The notes under the pieces were generated by a model. The model had not been told where the DNA came from and searched no databases. It worked only from the letters and a program-made list of their open reading frames with translations. Shown piece by piece: positions 9,404 through 34,337 of a stretch of DNA of 64,000 bases. The position numbers and the translations under genes were made by a program. The stretch's first letter is position 1; every line of letters starts with the position of its first letter. This DNA is from Okamejei kenojei (taxonomy: Eukaryota): contig CM069156.1 in NCBI GenBank assembly GCA_035221665.1, forward strand, positions 39,928,001-39,992,000, given 5' to 3'.

Positions 9404-12152
9404 GGGTTTTCCCCGTAAGTTTTTTTTGTACTTCACTTGGAGCAAAAAGAATCGAACTTATATCAAACGGTAAACAGTCTTCCATTTTCATCTTTAGCCA
9501 AGCTGGTTCCTGATCCATTTTTACCAGCCAAAAATTCATATTCTTAATCTGACCCGTCCAAAAATAATATAAAACATTAGGTAACGCTAATCCATTTATC
9601 TTGGATTTACATAAATGTTTTTTACTTATTCTGTGATTTTTATAATCCCAAATAAAGCTGTTAATAATAGAATCGATTTAAAAATAAAATAAAGGGATAG
9701 CTTGAAATAAATATAATAATTGTGGTAAGAAGACCGTTTTTATAGCATTTATTCTGCCAATCATTGATACTGGTAGTGTTTTCCAGTATAAAATATTATT
9801 TTTTAGTTTATCCAATAACTGAGGGTAATTTAATTTGATTAATAGATTATAAGATTTGGATACATTAATTCCTAGATATTTAAATTTATCCGTAACTATT
9901 TTAAACGGAAATTGTTGTAATATGTTTAATTTTATTCCAGTTATAGGCATAATTTCACTTTTATTGCAATTCTATATCCTGAAAATGTACCGAACTTAGT
10001 TATAATGTTATGTAAGTTAGGAATACTGATCTCCGGTTTTGTGATATATATTAAAACATCGTCTGCATATAAAGATATTTTATTCATTGTGGTATTAGTA
10101 TTGTATCCATATATTTCTGGATTTGATCTAATCCTTTTGGCTAATGCCTCGATTGCGAGAGCAAATAATAAAGGTGATAACGGGCATCCTTGTCTACAAC
10201 CCTTAGAAAGATTAAATTTAGCTGATAACATTTGGTTTGTTAGTATTCTTGCTGTAGGGTTGGAGTACAAAATTTTAACCCATTTACAAAATCTATCGCC
10301 CAGTTGAAATTTCTGCACTATCTTAAATAAGTAAGGCCATTCAACCTGGTTGAATGCTTTTTCCGCATCTAGTGAAATGACAGCTAATTCAATATCATTA
10401 ATTCTTTTTGAATATATGATATTGAATAGTCGTCTCAGGTTATAAGTGGAGTAACGTTTGGGAATAAAGCCTGTTTGATCATGATGTATTAGTTTATTAA
10501 TCATTAAACTTAACCTTTGGGATAAAGTTTTAGTTAATATTTTTTGATCAGTATTTAGAAGAGCAATTGCTCTATATGATCCAGGATCTTCCAGATCCTT
10601 ATCTACTTTAGGAATTAGTGTAATTGTAGACTCGTTTAGAGTTTCTGGTAACTTTCCTTGTTCATAAGCGTATTTTTATATCGCTTGTAAACATGGGGAA
10701 ATCAAGTCGTGAAACTGCTTATAAAATTCAGCACTTAGGCCATCAGGGCCAGCAGCTTTTCCATTTTTCAACGATCTGATTGATTCCTCAATGTCTTTTA
10801 CTGATATTTCAGCATCTAACAAGTCTTTGCCTTCCTGATCTAAACCTTTGATATGACATTCATGTAGGAATGTTTCCATTCCATCCGATTGCCCCGTCAG
10901 TTTGGTTGAATAAAGTTTATGATAGTAATGCAGAAATCTGTCATTAATATCTTTTGGCAAAGTTAATATTTCACCTTGTTTTGATCTGATTTTATATATC
11001 ATTTTTTCCTCATCTGATTTTCTAAGCTGGCGTGACAATAATTTTTGTGGTTTATCACCAAATTCAAAATGTACTTGTTTAGTCTGTTGAAAAGGTTTCA
11101 TAACATGATATGAATATATTTTATTTTGCTTATATTTTAATATTGCAATTTTATTATGTATCACCTTAGATGGAGATATTGCATTTTCAATATCTAATTG
11201 CTTTATTTCATTTTCTAAAGTTTGTTGCATCTTTCGGTTTTCCTTATTAAGGTATGCTTGCGCAGATATTATAGCACCACACATAAAGGCTTTAAATGGG
11301 TCCCAAAGAAGTGACGCTGAAATTCCGGGTTTGTCATTAGTCTCAAAAAACAATTTAATCTGTTTTACCAGATAATCATAACAAGCCTTTTCATTTAAAA
11401 TTTGAGGGTTGAGTCTCCATTGAGAGTGTTTATTAGTTATTGCATTTAATTTTATCTTAAATGTTAATGGTGCGTGATCCGAAATAATAATATTATGGTA
11501 TTTTGAGTCATACGTAAATGGAATTAATTTTGAATCTATTAAAAAATAATCTATCCTTGAATAGGTTCCGAATACAGGTCAGTAAAATGAATATTCCCAA
11601 CCAGAAGGGTTATCAGTTCTCCAGACATCCTTAACATTTGTAGTAGTAATAACAAAAATTATAAATTCGCTTGATTTAGATGTAACTTTTCTTTTAGTAG
11701 ATGATCTATCTAGATAATTATCTAAAGTACAGTTTTAATCACCCCTAATTATTAGATTATGTTGTGTAGATACCGGAATAGTATTAAATATTTTCTTAAA
11801 AAACAACGGATTATCGAAATTAGGTCCATATACGTTCATAAGGACAACTTTCTTTGAATATAATTCACCCGTAATTATTATATATCTACCCTAAATATCT
11901 TCTATTATTGAGGTATGTTTAAATGGTATACCTTTACGTATAAGAATTGCAACCCCTCTAGACTTTTGCGTAAATGAAGAATGATGCACTTTAGAAATCC
12001 ATTTTGCTGTTAGTCTATATTGCGCATCCTTTTTGAGGTGTGTCTCTTGAAGAAAAATTATGTCTGTTTTAAATCTATTTAAGTGAGCTAAAACCTTACC
12101 TCTTTTAATTGGTTCATTAATTCCCTTTACATTCCAGCTCGCTATGATTTTA
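9404..12152 (-). mobile_element. L1-clade LINE ORF2 remnant (endonuclease + RT)
   Basis: SWNVKGIN..DIIFLQETHL, KAAGPDG, DQTGFIP.R, SLDAEKAF, GCRQGCPLSPLLF, LYADDVL and FKYLGI motifs; many stops and frameshifts. Confidence 0.9.
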
Positions 12153-12578: not shown

Positions 12579-13446
12579 AAATAGTAAGATTAAATGAGAA
12601 CTTACCAGTTTGAAGTTTGATCTTTATTTTATGAGATGTCGAGTTGAGGGACTACGTGAAGAACCCCGTACAGCCGTTGGTGCGTCAATCTTCAAAGCAG
12701 CGGAGTGAACTCACAGATAACAATGACTGAAGTATAATGGTAAGATAACAAAGAGTAGAACTACCAGATGAAATCTATGAGGGCTGGGAGCGGAGGGCAC
12801 GTAGTACCTCAACTCGACTCCTCATAAAATAAAGATCAAACTTCAAACTTCAAACTGGTAAGTTCTCGTTTAATCTTACTATTTTACTTCAGAGTCACAT
12901 GAGTGACTACGTGAAGACTTCAAAGCACTGTGATTTCACGCCGCAGACCCAAATCCGGCGTTCACACTGCATCGATTAACTCAAAAGTTGTTAACAATCA
13001 ATAATGCGAGGCACTCCGGAGGGAGGAAGGTTGATGACCAGGAGAGTGTTGTTGGTGGAGGCCCATCTTGTGCACCTGGTCCGATGCTGGCTATGGAGCC
13101 AACGATTGCGGACCCACTGCCTGTCAATGGGCCTATCTGACTTGCCAGTGGCCTTCCACCCTAGTGGCAAACCTACACTGCTCACAGGCACTGGGTCCGC
13201 AATCTCCGGAGCGCCTCGCCACCACCTTTTTCACTTTCTGCAACATTTCCAAAAGGACCTCTCCAACCGTCACAGAAAATGAACTGTGAAAATTTTTTTT
13301 TAACTTACCTCGAGTTTTTAAACTTACCGCTTGGAGGAGCGCTGCTGCTCCAACCGGCCGACTGCACCAATGCGTCTGACGTCATGACGCACCAACGGCT
13401 GTATGGGGTTCTTCACGTAGTCACTCACGTGACTCCGAAGTAAAAT
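12579..13446 (-). mobile_element. Non-autonomous mini-DIRS1 element (~870 bp) with both ITRs and ICR
   Basis: Left end (rc) at 13385-13446 and right end with extension at 12579-12690. ICR at ~12795-12920 contains the junction cttactattttacttc. Same terminal motifs as the long DIRS elements; no RT or YR. Confidence 0.85.
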
Positions 13447-15560: not shown

Positions 15561-16287
15561 AAAACGTTCTCCAGGACGAGGCTATCCCATTGAACTCCGG
15601 GTATGCTGACGCCTGTGATGTCCCCAAATGCGGGATACTTAACTGCAAAATTTGTGATAGCGGGGGGCTGCGTTTGCGCTCTCCCCTGATATTCTAACTG
15701 AAACCAGAATAAAATGCTTTCGTGGCTACAATCTCCAAAATTTAGAAACATAGAAACATAGAAAATAGATGCAGGAGGAGGCCATTCGGCTCTTCGAACC
15801 AGCACCGGCATTCATTGTGATCATAGCTGATCATCCCAAATCAATAACCCGTGCCTGCCTTCTCCCCATATCCCTTCATTCCACTTCATTCCAGCTCTAT
15901 CTAAACTCTCTCTTAAATCCATCCAGTGATTGGTCCTCCACTGTCCTCTGTGGCAGGGAATTCCACAAATTCACAACTCTCTGGGTGAAAAAGTATTTTC
16001 TCACCTCAGTCTTAGATGGCTTCCCCTTTATTCTAAGACTGCAGCCCCTGGTTCTGGACTTGCCCAACATTGGGAGCATTATTCCTGCATCTAGCTTGTC
16101 CAGTCCTTTTATAATTTTACTTCGGAGTCACGTGAGTGACTTCGTGAAGACCCCGCCAGCACGCATGCGCGACATATCGTCGCGCGCATCAGCCTCGGGG
16201 GGGGGGGGGGGGGGAGGGGGGAGTGCGCTCTCTCCACCAGCTCCTTCATAAGGACCGTCAGGTAAGTGCTTACCTTACTCCCACAGG

Positions 16288-18095
16288 ATGGACAAAGGCA
16301 AGACGAAGGCGACACTTGCCAGGAGCCGTGGTGCATTGACCAGCCAGCGGCCTTTGTCCCCGGAGTTGCAAGCACCACCAGCAGCTTCGGGACATGTGGG
16401 GGCAAGAATGCGGAAGTCGGGCGCTCCCGTTACTCTAGCGCCCGACTCATCACCTGAATGGTTTACCGCACCGGAGCTGGAGACTGCTGATCCAGACTTC
16501 GAGCCCCCTTCCCCAAAAAAAGAGGGGGAAAACAGGTACGTGGGAAGGAGCCTCGCTCATCACCAGCGACCTCACCCCGAGTTCCAGCAGACCCAAGGGG
16601 ACTGGGCCGGGGGACAGGTGCACTGCAGGGGAGCCCTGCAGCTGCGCACCACCACATACAACTGCCAGGGAGATCTGCCGTAGAGCAGTCTGGCAGAGCT
16701 ACTGCTGCGTTGAGCAGGCCTGTAGGAGCAGGTGCTGCCGGCAAAACACCTCGTTAGGCTGCGGTCAAGGGCGGTGGTGGCAGCAGTAGACGGTCGGTCA
16801 GCTTAGCTCTGGGAGCGGCCGACCATGCGCCTCCACGCCGAATATTGGGCGACAATGGAGGTAAGCCTGCACGCCCTCCGGGGAGCCAGGTTCCGGGGGC
16901 CGGCGCCGATCCAACTCACCTGCCTTCATATCAGACAGGTGGGCCGCCACAGTCTGTAAGAAGACAGACTAGCGGAGAGTCCGTGCGGGAGTCGTATGAG
17001 CCTACTCTGGCGGTAGGCCACGACGACCTGCCATTGGACCCTAGTCAGCACCTTACGGAGGTGTGGTCCAATGGTGGAAGCCCCAGTGATATCGCAGGGC
17101 CTGGGGAAGTCGGCTTGTCCGCTGCACATAGCAGGGACGGTCGCATAGAGCGGTTGGAGCTCTTAGTGGAGCAACTCCTCCAGCGGGACAGGGACCGGGA
17201 AGAACGGGACTCGCGGGGATCCACAAGCCGCGCAAGGAGTCCTCTCAGTATCTCGTCCTCACCAGCCAGAAGTGCCAGCAGTTGCCCAGCCGTTGTATTT
17301 GAAGACGACCCGGGACAGCCAGTGACCACTGAGCCAGAGCATGAGGAGGAAATGCTGGACATGGTGAGCAAGTTTGCCGCAACTATACAAACAGGGGAAC
17401 CCCTGCACCACAAACTGGCGGGCACCATTGATTACCTGACTACTCACCAACTCCAGAGTCAGGTACTCAATGACACTATGGAGAAAATAAAGCCACCTGA
17501 GAACTGCATTAACCTCAGTGTTCCCCTGGTTAATGCTCAAATCTGGGGACACTTGAGCACGGCCACCAGGATGCAGGATGTCCGCCTCCAGCGTATCTTA
17601 ACGGTCCTCTCCATGGGTATAACGGCGTTTGCTAGGACCCTTGACGGGGATAATGTGTCCAGTGAACAACAAGTTGCCCTGGCACTCGTATGCAACGCCC
17701 AGTATGAGATCAACTGCCTGCGTAAGAGCTCCATAAAGCCCACACTCAACCCCAAATTCGCGGGGTTGTGCCGTCCTTCAACCACTCCACCACATCATCA
17801 ACTGTTTGGAGATCTCTCCAAACAAGTGAAGGAACTAGACGAGGAGGCCAAAACAGCTGGCCTAATGAAACCTCCTACGACTAGACTTCACCCATACCAC
17901 CGGCAACAACCACACACAAACTGGAAACCGCGGCAGCCGGACAGGACACCAAGGGCTTATCCCCCTCCACTTCCTCAAACACAGCAGCCTTTTTTAGGAC
18001 AAGGCGAACAGCGGCCTGCGTGGAATATGCGGCCGCCATCCCGACAATCTCCACAACGTCCACCCAAAGCGACATACGCCAGGAACCGTCGTTAA
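16288..18095 (+). pseudogene. DIRS-A gag-like ORF1 (5' part disrupted; main ORF 16845..18095)
   Basis: 416-aa ORF with PENC..L.VP.VN..IW..L..R.QD.RLQ and LFG..PFLG, typical of DIRS gag; homologous to 29822..30133. Confidence 0.75.
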
Positions 18096-18097
18096 CC

Positions 18098-20030
18098 ATG
18101 GAGGTAAGGGGGCCTGGTTCCTCTCAGACCGTAGCATCCCTTCCTGCACAAATTGGTGGGCGATTGGGGGCCTTTTTGGGAATATGGAACACTATCACCA
18201 CAGATGAGTTTATTTTATAAAGTGTTCAAGGTTATGTTATAGAATTCATTGGTGGTAAAAATCCCCCTACCCAGCATTCGCCTCATCGGAAATTTACACT
18301 CTCCCAAAAAGAGGTGGAAGCAGGACAGGCTGAAATTGTATGGCTAGCAGCAAAAGGGGTGATTGGGAAAACAATGCACGAACCCCTTGAGTTTGTGTCC
18401 AACATTTTCACCAGAATTAAAAAAGATTGGGGGTGTCGAATTATAATAGACCTAACTGAGCTGAACACCTTTGTACAATATACTCACTTTAAAATGGATA
18501 ACTTTGAAACAGCCAAGCAGATGCTTTACCCGGGGTACTTTATGGCATGCATCGATTTAAAAGATGCATACTATACAGTGCCCATCACTGTATACAGTGC
18601 CCATCTCACAGAAAATTTTTGAAATTTGTCTGGAAGGAACAATTATGGGAATACAAAGCATTGCCCAATGGAATCACCACAGCCCCTAGACTATTTACAA
18701 AATTAGTAAAACCTATATTGGCTCTTCTCCATCAACAAAATTACATGGTCATGGCATATTTAGATGATATCCTAATAGTGGGTCAGACCCTCCAATTGGC
18801 TACACGGGTAGTGGCAGCAACTAAGGCTTTATTCGAGAAGCTGGGATTTGTAATCCATCCAGACAAGTCAAAATTGCACCCGTCACGGGTTATGGATTAT
18901 TTGGGGTTCACCCTAGACACCAGCTTAATGATGATCACCATCCCAACCAATAAAGCTACCGCTATAAAAGAAGAGTGCCACAGTCTTGCTTGCGCCAGGG
19001 TACCGACCATCCAGCAAACGGCAAAAGTAATAGGGAAATTGGTAGCTACATTCTCAGCTGCACAATTCGGACCACTACATTACCAAAACTTACAAAGAAC
19101 AAAGATCGCAGCATTAAAAGCAAATGCTGGGCACTTTGATCGACCAATCCGGTTACCACCAAAAGCTAGAGCCGAGCTACAATGGTGGATTGACAATATT
19201 AGCGAGTGGCGCAGACCCATCATAGTAAGCAACCCATCCGTCGTGCTACAGACTGACGCAAGCGCACAAGGCTGGGGAGCAACTGATACTATGTCCAGTT
19301 GTGGTGGCAGATGGGACTCTCATGAGTCTACCTTCCTTCAGTCACACGGGATAAATTATATAGAAATGTTAGGGGCGTTTCATGGACTGCGGGCTTACTG
19401 TACTAATTCACGGGACTTACATGTCCGCCTCCAAATAGATAACACAACAGTGGTGGCTTACATCAATCATATGGGTGGTATCAGGTCGCTATCTTGTGAT
19501 GAATTGGCAAACACAATTTGGCACTGGTGCATCGAGAGGAATATTTGGATTACAGCGACCTATTTGCCAGGAAAGCTTAATACAGTGGCGGACACCAGGT
19601 CACGAGTATTCAATGACAACTTCGAGTGGATGTTGAACCCCCAAATTTTTGGAGACATTATAGCTCACTACGGGACACCAGATATTGACCTTTTTGCGTC
19701 CAGGTTGAACCATCAGATACCAACGTATGTGGCTTGGGAACCAGACCCTGGGGCAATAGCAATTTTATCCATTGGGGGAAATGGTTTTGCTACGCATTTC
19801 CCCCATTTTGCCTCATCAGTCGGGTATTGAAGAAAATTAAACTGGACTCTGCAACTGGCATATTGATCATTCCCGACTGGCCTACACAACCATGGTACCC
19901 GATGGTCCTTAAAATTTTGAAACGACCATGGGTTTTGATTGGGAAACATCCCAAATTGATTACTCACCCCATTACGGTGGATAGTCATCCATGCCATGGT
20001 CACCTAAACTTGTTGGCCTGCAGGTTCTGA
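18098..20030 (+). pseudogene. DIRS-A pol: RT + RNase H + Dam-like methyltransferase (MT) domain; one stop and about two frameshifts
   Basis: IDLKDAYY, LPNGITTAPRLFTK, AYLDD, YLG; RH motifs TDAS..GWG, INYIE, IDN; MT motifs DLFASRLNHQ and YAFPPF..IPDWPTQPWYP. Confidence 0.9.
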
Positions 20031-21058
20031 AAAGACCACTCATCAAGGTGGGCATCTCACCACGAGCCATGGAACTCATCTCAGCATCATGTCGAGAATC
20101 AACTCGGAGGCAGTACCTCACACAGATCAGGAAGTGGGAGGCATTCTGCTCTCGTACCAACACGACTTTCAACACGGCAACTATCCCTGATGTCCTGGAA
20201 TTCCTAGCTGGTCTTCATTTCGATGCTGGCCTTAGCTACAGTGCCATCAACAGCGCCAGGAGTGCACTATCCTCATACCTGGACATAGGTATAGGCTCAA
20301 ACCACCTGGTGTCTAAACTCATGAGGGGAGTGTTTAACACCAACCCTCCACGACCCAGATACACCTTCACCTGGATCGTTCTGACCCTAGTGAGGAGCTG
20401 GACTCCAATGAACGAGTTACCACTCAAACAGCTCACCCTCAAAGTGGTGATGCTGATGGCACTGATTACAGCCCAACGAGTCCAGACATTACAAAAGCTG
20501 CGGCTGGATAGCATGGTTTCCACCCCTAATCAAATAAACTTCTTTGTCCAGGACTTATTGAAGCAGCACAGGCCAGGGGCTCATGGGCTGCAGTTGGAGA
20601 TTTGGACATACTCTGTAGATGCCACCCTCTGCATGGTCACCCATCTACACTACTATATCCGAATTACAAGAACCATCAGGAAGAAGGAGCAGGGGCTCCT
20701 CATCGGCCAAAACCCTCTACATCATCGGGTGACTGTACAGACTATCGCCATGTGGCTCAGGGTAGTGTTAGATGCAGCCGGAGTTGCTACTAACATTTTT
20801 AAATCTAATTCCATTAGGGCTGCATCCACATCAGCGGCGACGGCCATGGAGGTGCCCATGGACCACATCCTCGCCACCGCGGGCTGGGCCAGTGAAGAAA
20901 CCTTCCAAAGGTTCTACAATAAGCCACTGGTCGCCCCGCGACATTCGCAGAAGCTGTGCTGGGAGCCGCTCAGTGCATGTCTGTCCCCGAATCACGGGTT
21001 ATTTGTTTGTTATTATTTGATTAATAAATTGTATCATTTTTCAGCCAGTTTTGACTGA
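20024..21058 (+). CDS. DIRS-A tyrosine recombinase (probably inactive: HxxR reads NSIR)
   Basis: YSAINSARSALS, AQRVQTLQKL, LLKQHRP, NSIRAASTS, ILATAGWASEETFQRFY. Confidence 0.85.
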   Translation, partial: VLKRPLIKVGISPRAMELISASCRESTRRQYLTQIRKWEAFCSRTNTTFNTATIPDVLEFLAGLHFDAGLSYSAINSARSALSSYLDIGIGSNHLVSKLMRGVFNTNPPRPRYTFTWIVLTLVRSWTPMNELPLKQLTLKVVMLMALITAQRVQTLQKLRLDSMVSTPNQINFFVQDLLKQHRPGAHGLQLEIWTYSVDATLCMVTHLHYYIRITRTIRKKEQGLLIGQNPLHHRVTVQTIAMWLRVVLDAAGVATNIFKSNSIRAASTSAATAMEVPMDHILATAGWASEETFQRFYNKPLVAPRHSQKLCWEPLSACLSPNHGLFVCYYLINKLYHFSASFD

Positions 21059-21145
21059 ACTGCATTAACAGCCTTCCTCCATCAGAATTGCGGCAGTGTG
21101 ATAGCATGGACGTTGTCCAGGGCGTGAAATCACAGAGCTTTGAAA

Positions 21146-21259
21146 TCTTCACAAAGTCACTCACGTGACTCCGAAGTAAAATAGTAAGATTAAATGAGAA
21201 CTTACCAAGTTTGAAGGTTGATCTTTATTTTACGAGGAGTCACGGTGAGGGATTTCGTG
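21146..21259 (+). repeat. DIRS-A internal complementary region (ICR)
   Basis: Reverse complement of the left terminus joined through aaaat to the reverse complement of the right extension. Confidence 0.85.
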
Positions 21260-21397
21260 CCCCCCGCTCCCACCCTCTATCATAAGGTCAACTCGGAAGT
21301 TCTACGTTCTTCATCTTACTATTTTCAGTTATGGTGCATTCTGTGATTCCACACCGCTGCTTTGAAGGATGTCGCGCATGCGTGCTGGCGGGGTCTT

Positions 21398-22041
21398 CAG
21401 AGATGCCAAGTGTCCCGGATTCGCCGTATTTTATCCCGGCGAAATAACTTTTTTACGGTGTTCCGGCAGCCAAGCATGCTGTTACGGAACACCGCCGCGC
21501 CGGTGTTCCTCCCGTGAGAACGCCGGCGCCATGTGTCCCCGGTTTGCCAGCCCGCGCGATCAGCGGCATTTTGCCGGGCCCTAGTGACCGCGCCTGCGCA
21601 GTGGGGGAGGGTTGCCGGGCCCTAGTGACCGCGCCTGCGCAGTGGGGGAGGGTTGCCGGGCCACAGTGGCCGCGCGTGCGCAGTGGGGGAGGGTTGCCGG
21701 GCCTGGCGCGATTTCGAGCCACGCCACGCCCGGCCCAGAGCCCGGGTGGCGCCGGCCCGCGCGATCAGCGGCACTTTCTTGCCGCTAGCCGGCCGCTCGC
21801 GGCAGCCCCATCACCGGGCCTCCCACCCAGTGCGCAGGCGCAGACCCGCCGGCAACCATGCCAAGTGCGCATGTGCCGCACCCGCCCGCCGGCAGCCCGC
21901 TGATCTGCACCAGTGCGCAGGCGCATAGCCGCCGGCAACAACCCCAGGTGAGTGTTACGGAGAGAAATGCATTTAACCCCATTTGTTACGGACAAATGGG
22001 TTAAATGTTACTGTGAACTAAATTTAGGGTTGGCATCTCTG
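21398..22041. mobile_element. MITE (644 bp) with 12-bp TIRs and 6-bp TSD, inserted in the DIRS-A right ITR
   Basis: cagagatgccaa / ttggcatctctg; ggtctt at 21392-21397 and 22042-22047; three internal ~41-bp GC-rich repeats at 21572-21700. Confidence 0.9.
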
Positions 22042-23764
22042 GGTCTTCACGAAATCCCTCACCGCGACTTTTACTATTTTATATGATTCTATAAGATCCC
22101 CCTCATCCTTCTAAACTCCAGTGAATACAAGCCTAGTCTTTTCAATCTTTCCTCATATGACAGTCCCGCCATTCCAGGGATCAAACTCGTGAACCTACGC
22201 TGCACTGCCTCAATCACAAGGATGTCCTTCCTCAAATTAGGAGACCAAAACTGTACACAAATCATTCATATATATGGTAAACAATTGCAGCCCCAACTAC
22301 ACTCGCCACTGCTGCCATTCTGAAAAGGTCCCGTTCACTCCTAACTCTTTGCTTCCTGTCTGCCAACCAATTTTCTATTCATCTCAACACCCTACCCCCA
22401 ATACCATGTGCTCTAATTTTAGTCACCAGTTTGCCGTGCAGGACCATATCAAAGGCTTTCTGAAAGTCTAGATACACTACATCCACTGGCTCCCCTTCAT
22501 CCATTTTACTTGTCACATCTTCAAAAAATTCCAGAAGATTAGTCAAGCATGATTTCCCTTTCATAAATCCATGTTGACTTGGACTAATCGTTTTACTGCT
22601 ATCCAAATACCCCATTATTACCTCTTTAATAATTGTCTCCAGCATCTCCCCCTGAAATGACCCTGCGTCTTCCGGATTATGCCCAGAAATTCCTGCCATT
22701 GCTGTTCCACCGTCATTCCTGCTAGGATCCCTTTCCAGTCTTCCTTGGCCAGCTCCTCTCTCATGCCTTCATAGTCCCCTTTCTTAACTGCATCACTGCC
22801 ACTTCCGACTCAACCTTCTCCTTCTCAAATTGCAGATTAAAACTAATCATATTATGATCACTACTTCACCTTCACCTCAAGTTCTCTTATCAAATCTGGT
22901 TCATTAGACAACACTAAATCCAGAATTACCTTTTCTCTGGTCGATTCCATTAAAAGCTGCTCTGAGAATCCATCTCGCACTCTACAAACTCTCTTTCTTG
23001 GGGTCCTGAACCAACCTGACTTTCCCAGTCTACCTGCATATTGAAATCCCCCATCACCACAGCGGCATTACCTTTGTTACATGCCAGTTTTAACTCCTGC
23101 TGTAACATACACCATGCATCAGGACTACTATTTGGGGGTCTGTTGATTACACCAATTAGTGTCTTCTTGTCTTTACAATTCCTCAACTTAATCCACAGTG
23201 ACTCTACCTCATCAGTCCCTATGTCTTCCCTCGCAAGGGACTGAATTCCATCCCTCACCAGAAGTGCTATCCCCCACCTGCCTGCCCTTTCTATAGGATG
23301 TATAACCCTGAATATTAAGTTCCAAGGCCCGATCCTCCTGCAGCCACGTCTCAGTAATCCTCACAATGTCATATCTACCAATCTCTAACTGAGCCTCAAG
23401 CTCATCTAATTTACTTCTTACACTTCGCGCATTCATATACAATACTTTTAATTCCTTACGCATCTCACCTTTCACATCGATCCCGACTACACTTGGCCAC
23501 ACTCTCCTATCCATTTGTGAGCTTCCTTTCCTGCTAATTCTGGGGTCATTAACTATCGCTTTACTCTCTTTCCCTTTAACTCCGTCCTTGACTATCCCAT
23601 TTGACACCCCCCTCCCCTTATTTAGTTTAAAACCACCCGTGTAGCAGTGGCAAACCTGCCTGTCTGGTTTTATTTTAAGGCGACTATCTTAGAACTTTTT
23701 TTCTCCTCAACATCATTAAAATCTATTTCTCGTCATCCTCATATTTTTCATCAGCCATGACAGT

Positions 23765-28925: not shown

Positions 28926-30412
28926 TGCCCATTTAAGAGTACAAGAATGCATAACTTGTTTATTGTGTATTTGTAATATGGTTTACTGTGAATTTTACTT
29001 CTGAGTCACGTGAGTGACTATGAAGAAGCCCCGCCTGGCGCATGACCGGCATTACGTCGACGCTGTTGGTAGGCAAAGAGCTGCAGAGCGCAGCTCCACC
29101 AGCGGTAAGGAACAGGCCCACAGGTAAGTGCATTTAATTTACTTCCAGGGCAGTTCAAACTCCATTGCGCTGGCGTGCAGAGCCAGGAGGAGTTAAAAAT
29201 TAAAATGGAAAAAGTCCAGAAAAAATCACCGCGGGTTAAACGAGTGTCCCGGGGAGAAGAAAAACAGTCGGGACATGAGATTAGTGCAGAGCCGGTTCCG
29301 ATACCGGTGGCCGTGGAAATACCCGTTAGTGAACCTGTAATTGCTCCACAAACAGAAGCCACAGAGGAAATTCCTGTGCCAAAGAAAAGTAACAGGAAAT
29401 CCGTGAGGCCCGTGGTTTCTGATTACTCTGATAGTGAAAGTCCTCTGGATAGAAAAGCCATGTGGCTAAGAATGGAACACATGGAGAACGTTCTCCAGAC
29501 TATTATCAACCAAGGGTCCAAGAACCCAGAATATTCCCAAGCAGGCCCTGAGGGGTTTGCATATCAAGAATACGGCATTATGCCAAATTGGGAATTTGAA
29601 ACTCCAGAGCCTGGAATTGGGTTGGAGGAAGTCTCCTTTGACGAAGTCTCAGGAGTACCAGGGCTGCAAGAGACAGACCCTGAAGGTGGTGATGTTGGTC
29701 ATGAGTACCCACCACAATATAAAAAGATGAAACCAGGTGTGCCTGATGTGGCACAAAGCTTTGCTATATCTGAAGGAAGTGGTGAGGCCATGGAAGAAAA
29801 CCTGGCAGCCAACATTATTACTTGGTTTCTCACCAACTTCAAGAGGCTGTTATGGTTGAAACAGCAGAATTATATAAAACACCTGTGAATTGTGCTTCAC
29901 TAAGGGTACCTACGGTGAATCCGACTATTTGGACGCCCATGTCGTCAGTTATGCGGGCACAGGAAATACGTTTTCAAAGAGTCCTCAAACTTATTTCAGC
30001 TGGCATCACTGCTTTTGGGAAGCAAGTGGAAGGTTCTGCAATGACCAAAATTCAAAAAGATATGTTGGCTTTATTCTGCAATTCATTTTTTGAGCTCAAT
30101 TGTATGAGGAAAATTGCGATTCGGCCCATTTAGCACCCTAGATTTGCAGGCCTGTGCAGAACAAGTAATGTTCAAACTCCTGGTTATTTGTTCGGAGAAA
30201 ACCTGCCCAAGCAAATCAAAGATATGGATGAAGAGGCAAAATCTATTAGCCTCATGAGACCCTTCATCTTTGGCCAAAGAAGGTCTGGTGCAATAAGAAG
30301 GGGATTTGATTTTGGAGCTGGAACAAGCAGAGGCAGGAGTATGGAATTACCATCCAGCACAGCCTAATGTTCACCCATATGTGTGAGAAGGAGACCATCA
30401 CGTACGTTTGGA

Positions 30413-32333
30413 GAGGTACAAAAACTTTATTCTATCACAGTGGAATCTTTGGATGAACCTCCAATTGGTGGTAGATTACAATTGTTTTATGATGAATGGG
30501 ACTGTATAACATCTGACCGGTTTATATTAGATACTGTGTCTGGAGCTACAATAAAATTTGTAGAAGGTACTGATCCACCGGTACAGAATAAACCTAATCG
30601 TGTTTTGATGTTTTCTGCACTAGATAAAGCTGAAATAAAAGAAGAGGTAAACAATTTGTTTAAAAAAAGGAGTTATTGAGAAAACTGTTAAGCATCCACA
30701 GCAATTTGTATCAAATATTTTCCCAAGACCTAAAAAAGATGGTGGTTGTAGAATCATTCTGGACCTTACACACTTTAATACATTTGTCCAGTATAAACAT
30801 TTCAAGACGGATACCTTCAACACTGCAAGACAATTGTTATCAGCAGGTTGTTACATGGCTACTATAGAGTTCAAGGATGCATATTATTCAGTACCAATTC
30901 ATCGTCATTTTCGAAGGTACTTAAAGTTTAGTGGGATGGGACAGCTGTGGCAATATAAAGCATTACCTAATAGATTAAACTCAGCTCCTAGGCTATTCAC
31001 AAAGTTGTTGAAACCAGAACTTGCACAGCTAAGGGCACAAAAACACATTGTTATGGCTTATCTGGATGACATTTTAATTGTCAGTCAGCTGAAAAATCAG
31101 TTTCAGCAACTACAAACCTGTTTGAAAGGCTAGGGTTCCTGATCCATCCAACAAAATGTAAGCTACAGCCATCCCAAACAATTGACTATTTGGGGTTTGT
31201 GATTAATTCAGTTACCATGTTAGTGACTTTACCAATAGACAAAATTGTTGATATTACAAATGTATGTTGTTGCCTTATTCACAAACCTTATCCCTCCATC
31301 CGAGAAGTAGCAAAGATTATTGGTAAGTTAGTAGCAGCATTTCCTGCAGTGGAATTTGGTCCACTACATTACCAAAATCTCCATAGGACAAAAGCACAAG
31401 CATTAAAAAAGCGAGCAGGCCATTTTGATAGGCCCATGCAATTACCGAAGGAGGCTTTATCAGAGTTACAGTGGTGGATTGAGAATGTTCCACAAGCTGC
31501 TAAAAACATTTTAGTACAGCAGCCTATAGTGTTTTTACAAACTGATGCAAGTGCTCTCGGATGGGGGGGGCTACGGATAATTTCACCAGCTGTGGGGGCA
31601 GATGGACTGTCCCAGAGGAATTGTTTCTCCAAACATATGGTATCAATTATTTGGAGTTATTGGGGGCATTTTATGGATTAAAAGCTTATTGTTCTACTAT
31701 GACGGATTTGCATGTCCAATTACAAGTAGACAATACCACAGCTGTTGCATATATTAATCACATGGGTGGCGTAAGATCATTATCATGTGATTGTCTGGTT
31801 AATCAGATATATGGCATTGGGGTATTGATAATAATATTTGGCTTTCAGCAATTTGTCTACCAGGGAAAGATAATGTTGTGGCAGACAACAGATCAAGGAA
31901 ATTTAAAGACAATACGGAATGGATGTTAAATCCACAAGTTTTCAATAATATTGTCAATCGGTATGGATTACCAGACATTGATCCGTTTGCGTCTAGATTA
32001 AATCACCAATTGCCCAAATACGTGTCCTGGGAACCCGATCCAGGAGCAGTAGCGGTGGATGCATTCTTGCTACATTGGGGGAATATGTTATTTTATGCTT
32101 TTCCCCCATTTTGCCTGGTTAGGCAATGTCTTACGAAAATAGAGCAAGACTCTGCCATAGGTTTATTGGTGGTTCCAAATTGGCCTACACAGGCATGGTT
32201 CCCATTGATGCTTAAAATGATTATGGAACCATTTATGACGATTCCTAGCTGCAGTGATTTGTTGGTGCAACCAGTAGCAAAAGAAATTCATCCATTGCAT
32301 GATCATATGAATTTGTTAATCTGCAGGTTCTGA
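30413..32333 (+). pseudogene. DIRS-B pol (RT/RH/MT), multiply frameshifted
   Basis: ORFs 30383, 30834, 31190, 31561 and 31878 align collinearly with DIRS-A pol. Confidence 0.85.
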
Positions 32334-33130
32334 CCAGACCACCGCAAGGGCTTGGACTGTCGGATAGGACCTTGGATGTTATAGCTTCGGCTTGGCGAAA
32401 TAGCACTAAAAAACAATATATGTCACATATAAAGAAATGGGAAGTCTTTTGTAGACAGTCAAAGATATCTTATCATACTGCAAACACATCAAATGTATTG
32501 GAGTTCCTTGCTGGGTTGCATTTTGATCAGCACTTAAGCTATAGTGCCATTAATAGTGCTCGTAGTGCTTTATCGTCCAATTTAGGACAAATTTCTGACT
32601 GTAAATCAATCGGGTCTCATCCATTAAGATCCTGGTTTATGAAAGGGATTTTTAATAGAAATCCTCCCAAACCAAGATATACAGAAATTTGGGATGTCAG
32701 CATTGTGCTTACTTTGCTTAGGCAATGACTCCAATCACGTCAATGTCTTTGCAAAAATTAACATTTAAAGTGGTAATGTTAATGGCATTAGTGTCAGCAC
32801 AAAGAGTACAAACATTGCAAATGTTACGTTTAGATTGTATGCATGTGGCTTCAGATAACATTGTGTTTTATGTTTATGATTTAATCAAACAAAGCAGACC
32901 AGGGAAAACTGGAACTAAGGTAATGTTTAAAGCTTACTCTGTGGATCAAACACTGAGTGTAGTTAGACATTTGACTCAATATATTGAAGTAACCAAGAGT
33001 CTCCGGGGTAGTGAGACAGTGTTACTGATTACGCACAAAAAAACACATACAAAAATATCAGTACAAACCATTTCTAGATGGTTAAAACAGGTTTTGGATT
33101 TAGCAGGATTAGACACTGATACGATAAACC
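32327..33130 (+). pseudogene. DIRS-B tyrosine recombinase, truncated
   Basis: YSAINSARSALS, AQRVQTLQML, QTISRWLKQVL; in-frame stop at 32728; HxxR and catalytic Tyr absent. Confidence 0.85.
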
Positions 33131-33856
33131 TGTTCTCACGGTGCCAGGCTTTGGACACGCAGTGTTGGGTTCACTGTGATTGTTTGCTTTGCTTTTTACT
33201 ATCGATTTATATTATCGATTTATGTTATGACTTTATACCTTTATCACTTTATTGTAAACTTTCCCCTGGGGTAAAGGGGTTATCACTTTTGTTCTTTTAT
33301 AATTAAAAGATTTATTACATAACTGAAGCAATGTTTTAAATGATATATTATTTACTCACTACTGTGTTGACTGAGCCAGAGTGTCGTATGGAATGAATCT
33401 ACGACATAAAAAACACAGAGCTACAAAATCTTCACGTAGTCGCTCACGTGACTCCGAAGTAAAATAGTAAGATTAAACGAGAACTTACCAAGTTTGAAGT
33501 TTGATCGTTATTTTATGAGGAGTTACGATGAGGGATTATGTGCCCTCCACTCCCAACCCTCATAAAATAAATGATCATCTGGTAGTTCTAGTCTATGTTA
33601 GCCTTACTATCTTACTCCGGCTATTGGTTCTGTGTTTTTCATGCCGCTGCTTTGAAGTATGCCGATCATGCACCAGGCGGGACTTCTTCACATAATCCCT
33701 CATCGTTACTCCTCATAAAATAACGATCAAACTTCAAACTTGGTAAGTTCTCGTTTAATCTTACTATATGTGTCATAGCTGCTTTCTTGCATTTTTCCAG
33801 AAGTTTATAATTGAAAGTCATTTGTCGCAAAGTCATTTGGTATCAAGAGAAAGAAT

Positions 33857-34337
33857 CTCTCTCTCTCTCTAACTTTCTTCTCTCTCTCCTCTCTCTCTCC
33901 CCCGCTCTCTCTCTCTCTCCCTACCTACCTCTCAAATCTCTCCCACACTCCCTCTCCTCTTNNNNNNNNNNNNNNNNNNNNNNNNNNNNNNNNNNNNNNN
34001 NNNNNNNNNNNNNNNNNNNNNNNNNNNNNNNNNNNNNNNNNNNNNNNNNNNNNNNNNNNNNNNNNNNNNNNNNNNNNNNNNNNNNNNNNNNNNNNNNNNN
34101 NNNNNNNNNCCCCCTCTCTCCCTACCTCCCTCTCTATTTCCCCTCTTTCTCCCCCTCGCTCTCCCCCTCTCTCACCACTCTCGCTCTCCCCCACTCTCCC
34201 TCGCCCCCTCTCTCGCTCCCTCTCGCTCTCTCTCCACCCCTCTTTCTCTCTCTCCCTCCCCCCCTCTCCCTCCCCTCTCTCCCTCCCCCCTCTCTCTCCC
34301 TCCCCCCTTCTCCATCCCTCCCTCCCCCTCTCTCCAT

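Follow-up and report, generated by a model that had tools for sequence, protein, structure and literature searches.

DIRS1-like retrotransposons carry gag, a pol gene with reverse transcriptase (RT), RNase H and methyltransferase domains, and a tyrosine recombinase (YR) gene in overlapping frames, together with inverted terminal repeats (ITRs), an internal complementary region (ICR) and ATT ends (PMC3266345). The route by which the YR is expressed is not described in the available portions of PMC3266345 and PMC9210276, in which the string "splic" is absent. The YR of Ngaro elements likewise lies in the -1 frame and overlaps the pol end; frameshifting is its probable mode of expression according to Poulter and Butler (2015), cited in the accessible part of PMC13003380. 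According to the accessible part of PMC5580714, the subgenomic gag RNA of a plant Ty1/Copia element (EVD) arises from alternative splicing that is conserved, maps close to the gag/pol border and sets protein ratios. Three DIRS1-like elements, DIRS-A, DIRS-B and the internally deleted DIRS-C, are located in a stretch of 64,000 nucleotides (nt) of the Okamejei kenojei genome (assembly GCA_035221665.1, contig CM069156.1, positions 39,928,001 to 39,992,000 of the forward strand; hereafter the window). These share the above organization, and no structural difference from described DIRS1-like elements was found. They are ordinary DIRS1-like elements with a conserved expression route that has likely not been described. 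Phase-0 splice sites, a donor and an acceptor, stand on either side of pol, and the YR, as judged from the sequence, is likely made by removal of pol as a single optional intron (18104-20023 of DIRS-A).

The positions and phases of these motifs, the open frames that they border and their conservation are direct observations. In DIRS-A, the donor GAG/gtaagg (slash, predicted junction) lies 8 nt past the gag stop and the acceptor reads tgcag/G. In families A, B, C and D, pol ends in Cys-Arg-Phe-stop and tgcag/ stands in phase 0 at the same YR residue. The genome (2.76 Gb) holds 2836 first-look candidates of family A and 6040 of family B; 20 copies each of A and B, 12 of family D and three full-length relatives of DIRS-C (L053-L055) were compared. 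The A and B copies were chosen by likeness to the acceptor region, and motif retention among them is therefore not evidence of selection. More distant relatives were collected with an alignment of 35 YR proteins, which recovered 86 loci of about 34-48% identity from metagenome contigs and contigs of metagenome-assembled genomes (MAGs). Eighty of these, with A, B and D, formed 57 families at 70% YR identity, and 55 families were scored; six loci without an anchor and two families without an in-frame PPF motif were left out of the acceptor counts. No relatives were found in viral contigs, and the annotated relatives come from molluscs, corals and echinoderms. Records titled bacterial MAGs also contained DIRS1-like elements (L141-L146), probably as animal host contamination.

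In most foreign loci, the YR frame is open for about 72 codons further upstream, as far as the serine codon of the PPF-S motif of pol, and this codon forms a pyrimidine tract plus YAG in phase 0. The YR frame was open over about 70 codons in 35 of the 38 families with the PPF-S AG and in 3 of the 17 without it (Fisher's test with families taken as independent, 8.5e-8, a value that overstates the association because only three independent pairs are well supported). Upstream of the AG, stops occupied 208 of 2248 codons, compared with 13 of 2657 downstream, and the bounding stop was the TAG itself in 14 of the 38 families. Among the closed families, 16 of 17 had a YAG in phase 0, together with a pyrimidine tract, at their last stop or beyond it (3.8 expected; 3 and 4 in the other phases). 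These replacement acceptors were located at -68, about -26, -17, -14 or 0, and the window elements are of the 0 type (20023 in DIRS-A). On a quick tree, in which the long branches of L138 and of the window copy of B are due to broken copies, the AG state changed 10 times. Two readings of the acceptor were rejected: an AG at 20022 is not universally conserved, as most foreign loci lack it and have the acceptor about 72 codons upstream instead, and the LSG codons, often TCC GG, do not serve as the acceptor.

At the opposite end of pol, a good phase-0 donor stands 27-28 codons upstream of the first conserved pol Trp in families A (GAG/gtaagg), D (GAG/gtaag followed by t or g) and C (CAG/gtaagg); the full-length C relatives combine this CAG/gtaagg with tttgcag/ATT at the YR start. 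With splice strength scored as matches to a consensus, a strong phase-0 donor was present in the pol leader of 25 of 32 families, against 7.1 +/- 2.1 under a synonymous-codon null (maximum 15 in 2000), and the donor phases were distributed 26/7/1. In 25 of 27 rows, compared with 8.2 expected, the best donor lay 2-41 nt 3' of the gag stop, and its position tracked the gag stop (Spearman 0.82) rather than the start of RT. Three loci with a wrong or cut pol anchor and two of 29 without an open slip site were left out of the donor and slip-site rows. Val-Ser and Val-Arg pairs were coded GTRAG in 21 of 34 cases in the pol leader, the sequence of which is itself unconserved, compared with 6 of 29 in the RT body. 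Judged by sequence, the GT donor and YAG acceptor are thus conserved beyond coding need and in matching phase, as for an optional intron of the U2 type. An earlier sequence-only reading of the window had suggested that pol serves as an intron for the YR and had named conservation of the motifs beyond protein coding as a check; comparison with 57 diverged families strongly supports that suggestion, and both the pol-leader donor and the YR acceptor exceed chance across families. For DIRS-B, the same reading had pointed to GAG/gtacaa at 30416. The place is right and the site is weak; family B has ATG/gtragg about 27 codons further upstream in 15 of the 17 copies with data (after 30343), and the window copy is short by 9 nt there.

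At the gag/pol boundary, pol is the -1 frame of gag, and most relatives lack a Met in the pol leader. The sequence-only reading took TTTTTTAG, ending at 17997, for a splice acceptor. U UUU UUA and A AAA AAC are the -1 frameshift motifs of human immunodeficiency virus 1 (HIV-1) and mouse mammary tumour virus (MMTV), and the heptamer T TTT TTA just before 17997 in DIRS-A is likely a site of this kind (Table 1). A slippery heptamer was found in register in 26 of 30 gag/pol overlaps, compared with 7 and 2 off register, and the 26 sites comprised TTTTTTA (14), AAAAAAC (9) and TTTTTTG (3). The AG that follows the slip motif was present in only 11 of the 26, and 17997 is better read as a frameshift site because the heptamer is the conserved feature. 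Of 19 family-A copies, 16 had the transframe stretch in register and free of stops. In families B, C, L081 and L118, gag and pol form one frame. L081 and L118 have a phase-1 and a phase-0 donor separated by two codons, of which one might yield free Gag and the other Gag-YR.

From these features we infer a splice, a frameshift, a fusion product and a donor placement that avoids decay. Unspliced RNA would serve as the genome and would yield Gag and, via a -1 frameshift at 17990-17996, Gag-Pol. Singly spliced RNA would retain gag and the frameshift site, and its products would be Gag and a fusion of Gag, the transframe stretch and the YR; B, C, L081 and L118 would need only the splice to make Gag-YR. 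Junction-dependent (nonsense-mediated) decay is avoided when a junction lies within about 50 nt of a stop. Since the donor stands close behind the gag stop, spliced RNA would evade such decay at gag termination, and the donor may be kept within about 50 nt of that stop to escape it. With somewhat less confidence than the removal of pol itself, it seems probable that animal DIRS1-like elements share one conserved expression code. A single frameshift and a single optional intron would then yield two alternative Gag fusions, Gag-Pol and Gag-recombinase; the long YR/pol overlap would be a linker that begins at the acceptor; the acceptor would have shifted on several occasions in evolution, in the window elements to the pol end; and avoidance of decay would keep the donor no more than 50 nt from the gag stop. 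The env genes of retroviruses and gypsy elements are similar in that a third gene is expressed by splicing over pol and Gag-Pol is made by a -1 frameshift. However, the donor of the window elements lies after gag rather than before it, the spliced RNA would retain gag and, by way of the frameshift used for Gag-Pol, make a Gag fusion, and the product is the integrating enzyme. EVD has the alternative splice near the gag/pol border in common with the window elements, but there splicing is coupled to early termination and gives Gag only, whereas here pol would be removed and a downstream enzyme joined (PMC5580714, accessible part).

Predicted gene models lend modest support to the fusion product. 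Among 39 NCBI-labelled YR proteins, four (P0118, P0119, P0194 and P0213) consist of gag-like sequence joined to YR with no match to pol, and a fifth model, P0183, has a transframe-like start when read by eye; all five are annotated invertebrate proteins. Two sea-urchin models (XP_071483612.1 and XP_071502116.1) join E/V at the same YR residue as the window elements, and mussel and clam models enter the YR at the PPF-S position (motifs aligned by eye). The support is modest since 25 of the 39 models fuse parts of pol to the YR and the models may be software chimeras.

The alternative expression scheme of the sequence-only reading also removes pol but differs in how the proteins start. A splice from the leader donor to 17998 would let pol start at its own ATG, and with a further splice the YR would start at that ATG as well, with no frameshift and no Gag fusion. 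This scheme is unlikely. In its favour, families A and D have a perfect leader donor, retain TTTTTTAG and carry in-frame ATGs between that motif and the pol-leader donor, and the ATG at 18098 is well placed, so the double splice is formally possible in these two families. The scarcity of the AG after the slip motif, the absence of a pol-leader Met from most relatives and the single gag-pol frame of B and C argue against it, as does the pre-gag leader donor, which is strong in only 2 of the 16 foreign families with the left end in the contig. The leader-to-17998 and double splices are therefore unsupported as a general programme and would be at most a local addition in A and D. The motif positions behind the scheme were all correct: GTAAGT at 16262, ATG at 18098, GT at 18104, AG at 20022-20023 and 32325-32326, GT at 29105, 29124 and 30416, minus-strand GTAAGT at 13327 and 13308, and TTTTTTAG at its stated end.

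The YR might instead start from its own ATG (Met16, or an ATG at -2) on a subgenomic RNA or on RNA spliced from the leader to the acceptor, which appears improbable to a greater degree. Met16 is in good context in A, B and D, and in 16 of 57 families an ATG precedes the acceptor position by two codons. However, Met16 falls within the predicted helix 13-21 of the YR model, and no in-frame ATG up to YR residue 20 was found in 17 of 57 families, in one of them only through a private change in the window copy of B; family C and 16 foreign families have no such ATG at all. In four families, YR codons 3-15, which lie past the pol stop, differed 33:21:50 at codon positions 1:2:3, similar to the 65:41:117 of the coding stretch behind them. 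The YR is therefore probably translated from upstream of its first Met, as the sequence-only reading had suggested, because codons 3-15 vary like coding sequence and family C lacks Met16. A start at an ATG of the YR itself also leaves the phase 0 of donors and acceptors unexplained. The absence of Met16 from DIRS-B was considered and rejected as a family trait: 18 of 20 family-B copies read ACCATGG, one ACCATGA and one has a gap, and the loss is private to the window copy.

Two further explanations are very improbable. A -1 ribosomal frameshift from pol within the pol/YR overlap, as quoted for Ngaro (Poulter and Butler 2015, in the accessible part of PMC13003380), would agree with a YR in the -1 frame that overlaps pol, but heptamers in that overlap were not enriched in register (17, 16 and 5 of 52, compared with 26 of 30 at gag/pol), which speaks against entry into the YR by frameshifting; a slip at the entry point would hit the TAG in 14 of 38 families, and no slippery heptamer was listed for the overlap of A or B. 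In this respect the DIRS1-like overlaps examined differ from the frameshifting proposed for Ngaro. That the motifs only reflect protein constraint at Cys-Arg, Phe-Ser and Val-Ser codons, with no splicing at any of them, as TGCAG being the Cys-Arg codon pair of pol, the slow change of serine codon classes and the lack of processed copies would allow, is just as hard to credit, since most relatives encode the same residues without the AG, GTRAG coding is concentrated in the unconserved pol leader rather than the RT body, and the stop-free stretch starts at the AG.

Several points weigh against the removal of pol as an optional intron. The acceptor threshold (8 of 12 pyrimidines) was fixed after a look at the data, and the three independent pairs on well-supported branches gave a sign test p of 0.25. 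The donor was weak or absent in 7 of 32 families, as well as at 30416 in DIRS-B; the codon null ignores the overlapping gag frame, and ties in donor distance were broken towards phase 0 in four rows. Hairpins 3' of the slip sites were not significant (mean z -1.1 vs -0.7 and -0.1, p 0.066; pseudoknots lie outside the model). The well-placed Met16 of A, B and D and the pol-YR fusions among the gene models belong here as well. A paired-motif search of the genome found no processed copies and 2465 unspliced donor sites. As the DIRS-1 reverse transcriptase can act in trans (PMC7192593, accessible part), the absence of a spliced genomic copy despite trans mobilisation means that spliced RNA would have to be kept out of copying or be scarce. 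No RNA junction was seen; four runs of one study, probably of DNA, contained no joints at the predicted sites of A or B among the joints listed and are uninformative either way.

The leader element before gag (Table 1) has a donor-to-acceptor spacing of exactly 25 nt in A, B (29124-29148), C (13308-13284, minus strand) and the foreign locus L061, and of 56 nt in family D; a second leader donor is located 19-20 nt upstream in B, C and L061. Strong leader donors, which the sequence-only reading had pointed out, are thus present in all three window elements, but the foreign families do not bear them out as a general feature. The 25-nt element is probably too short for splicing. All family copies compared retain it, and none without it was found. 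No processed leader junction was found in the genome, either from the leader to the YR (one variant only) or from the leader to gag or 17998, in a search with no positive control. The element could bind U1 or capture host exons. PMC4495291 (accessible part) inferred an own acceptor in the DIRS1 gag sequences captured by TMPO and ZNF451, and the leader element could be the source of that acceptor. A, B and C also have a donor-like GTAAGT in the right extension, with the complementary motif in the ICR (33743, plus strand; 12605 and 21205, minus strand); it could allow read-through transcripts to be spliced into host genes, or could simply belong to the replication signal.

Table 1. Positions in the window of the DIRS1-like elements and of the parts of DIRS-A.
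Feature	Position	Strand	Remarks
Predicted optional intron, DIRS-A	18104..20023	+	1920 nt, a multiple of 3; phase 0; contains almost all of pol
Likely -1 ribosomal frameshift heptamer T TTT TTA, DIRS-A	17990..17996	+	site taken for an acceptor in the sequence-only reading
Transframe stretch, pol frame, DIRS-A	17990..18103	+	predicted common to Gag-Pol and Gag-YR
25-nt leader element, DIRS-A	16262..16286	+	perfect donor, then pyrimidine tract; CAG just 5' of the gag ATG
DIRS-A, DIRS1-like	16114..22078	+	ATT at both ends; about 96% identical to 20 other copies
DIRS-A gag-like open reading frame 1 (ORF1)	16288..18095	+	interrupted in the window copy; stop 18093-18095
DIRS-A pol: RT, RNase H-like, methyltransferase	18098..20030	+	frameshifted in the window copy; stop two codons past the acceptor
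DIRS-A tyrosine recombinase frame (pol -1)	20024..20953	+	starts at the acceptor; Met16 at 20069
DIRS-A left terminus/ITR	16114..16175	+	inverse to 21146-21182 (left ICR) and 21369-21399 (right ITR)
DIRS-A ICR	21146..21259	+	from self-comparison
Insertion of 644 bp in DIRS-A	21398..22041		12-bp terminal inverted repeats, 6-bp duplication; inside the right ITR
DIRS-B	28992..33767 (approximate start)	+	family: gag and pol in one frame
DIRS-C	12579..13446	-	internally deleted, about 0.9 kb; leader donors 13327 and 13308; acceptor 13284

The assignment to DIRS1-like elements agrees with a tyrosine recombinase in place of a DDE integrase, with ITRs and an ICR matching both ends in A, B and C (self-comparison), and with the NTT ends of DIRS-A, the only element checked for these, where ATT occurs at 16114 and 22076-22078 and the flanks are not duplicated. 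Membership of Ngaro or PAT was rejected, as the repeats are inverted rather than split direct and a methyltransferase region, which Ngaro lacks, is present. In the window copy of DIRS-A, gag, pol and the YR tail are all disrupted. Its gag-like ORF1 had no Pfam match and resembled the N-terminal part of P0118/P0119. The RT matched PF00078 (E 1.5e-14), and pol was 41% identical over 422 columns to P0184, the matched part of which has RT, RNase H and Dam matches; the direct RNase H-like match was weak (E 0.2), and both RNase H and methyltransferase are assigned through the P0184 alignment. The YR matched PF13495, PF02899 and, weakly, PF00589; its structure model had a predicted local distance difference test (pLDDT) of 83.8, and the best fold match was Cre (template modelling score of about 0.7). 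The 644-bp insertion is GC-rich and likely a non-autonomous DNA transposon. L056-L060 and similar matches form a multi-copy group of family-C 5' ends that share one small internal inversion. Directly beyond DIRS-C, an AT-rich, broken long interspersed nuclear element with endonuclease and RT frames, L1-like by eye, occupies 9560-12150 on the minus strand, and a run of 148 N lies inside a simple repeat at 33962-34109, outside the finding.

The splicing of pol for the YR was not described in the literature searched (including the accessible parts of PMC7192593, PMC8547959, PMC4495291, PMC9940879 and PMC5633606; the original DIRS papers and key reviews were outside its scope), and the route is probable, not proven, to be new. 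Recombinase expression in the DIRS order has so far been a matter of conjecture, with frameshifting as quoted for Ngaro. The present finding provides exact junctions that can be tested, in a superfamily that numbers thousands of copies in this genome and has relatives among molluscs, corals and echinoderms. If it is true, the puzzling overlap of the frames would be explained, the starts assigned to the YR in gene models and repeat libraries would need correction, the recombinase would be predicted to enter particles as a Gag fusion, and host splicing could toggle the element between copying and integrating.

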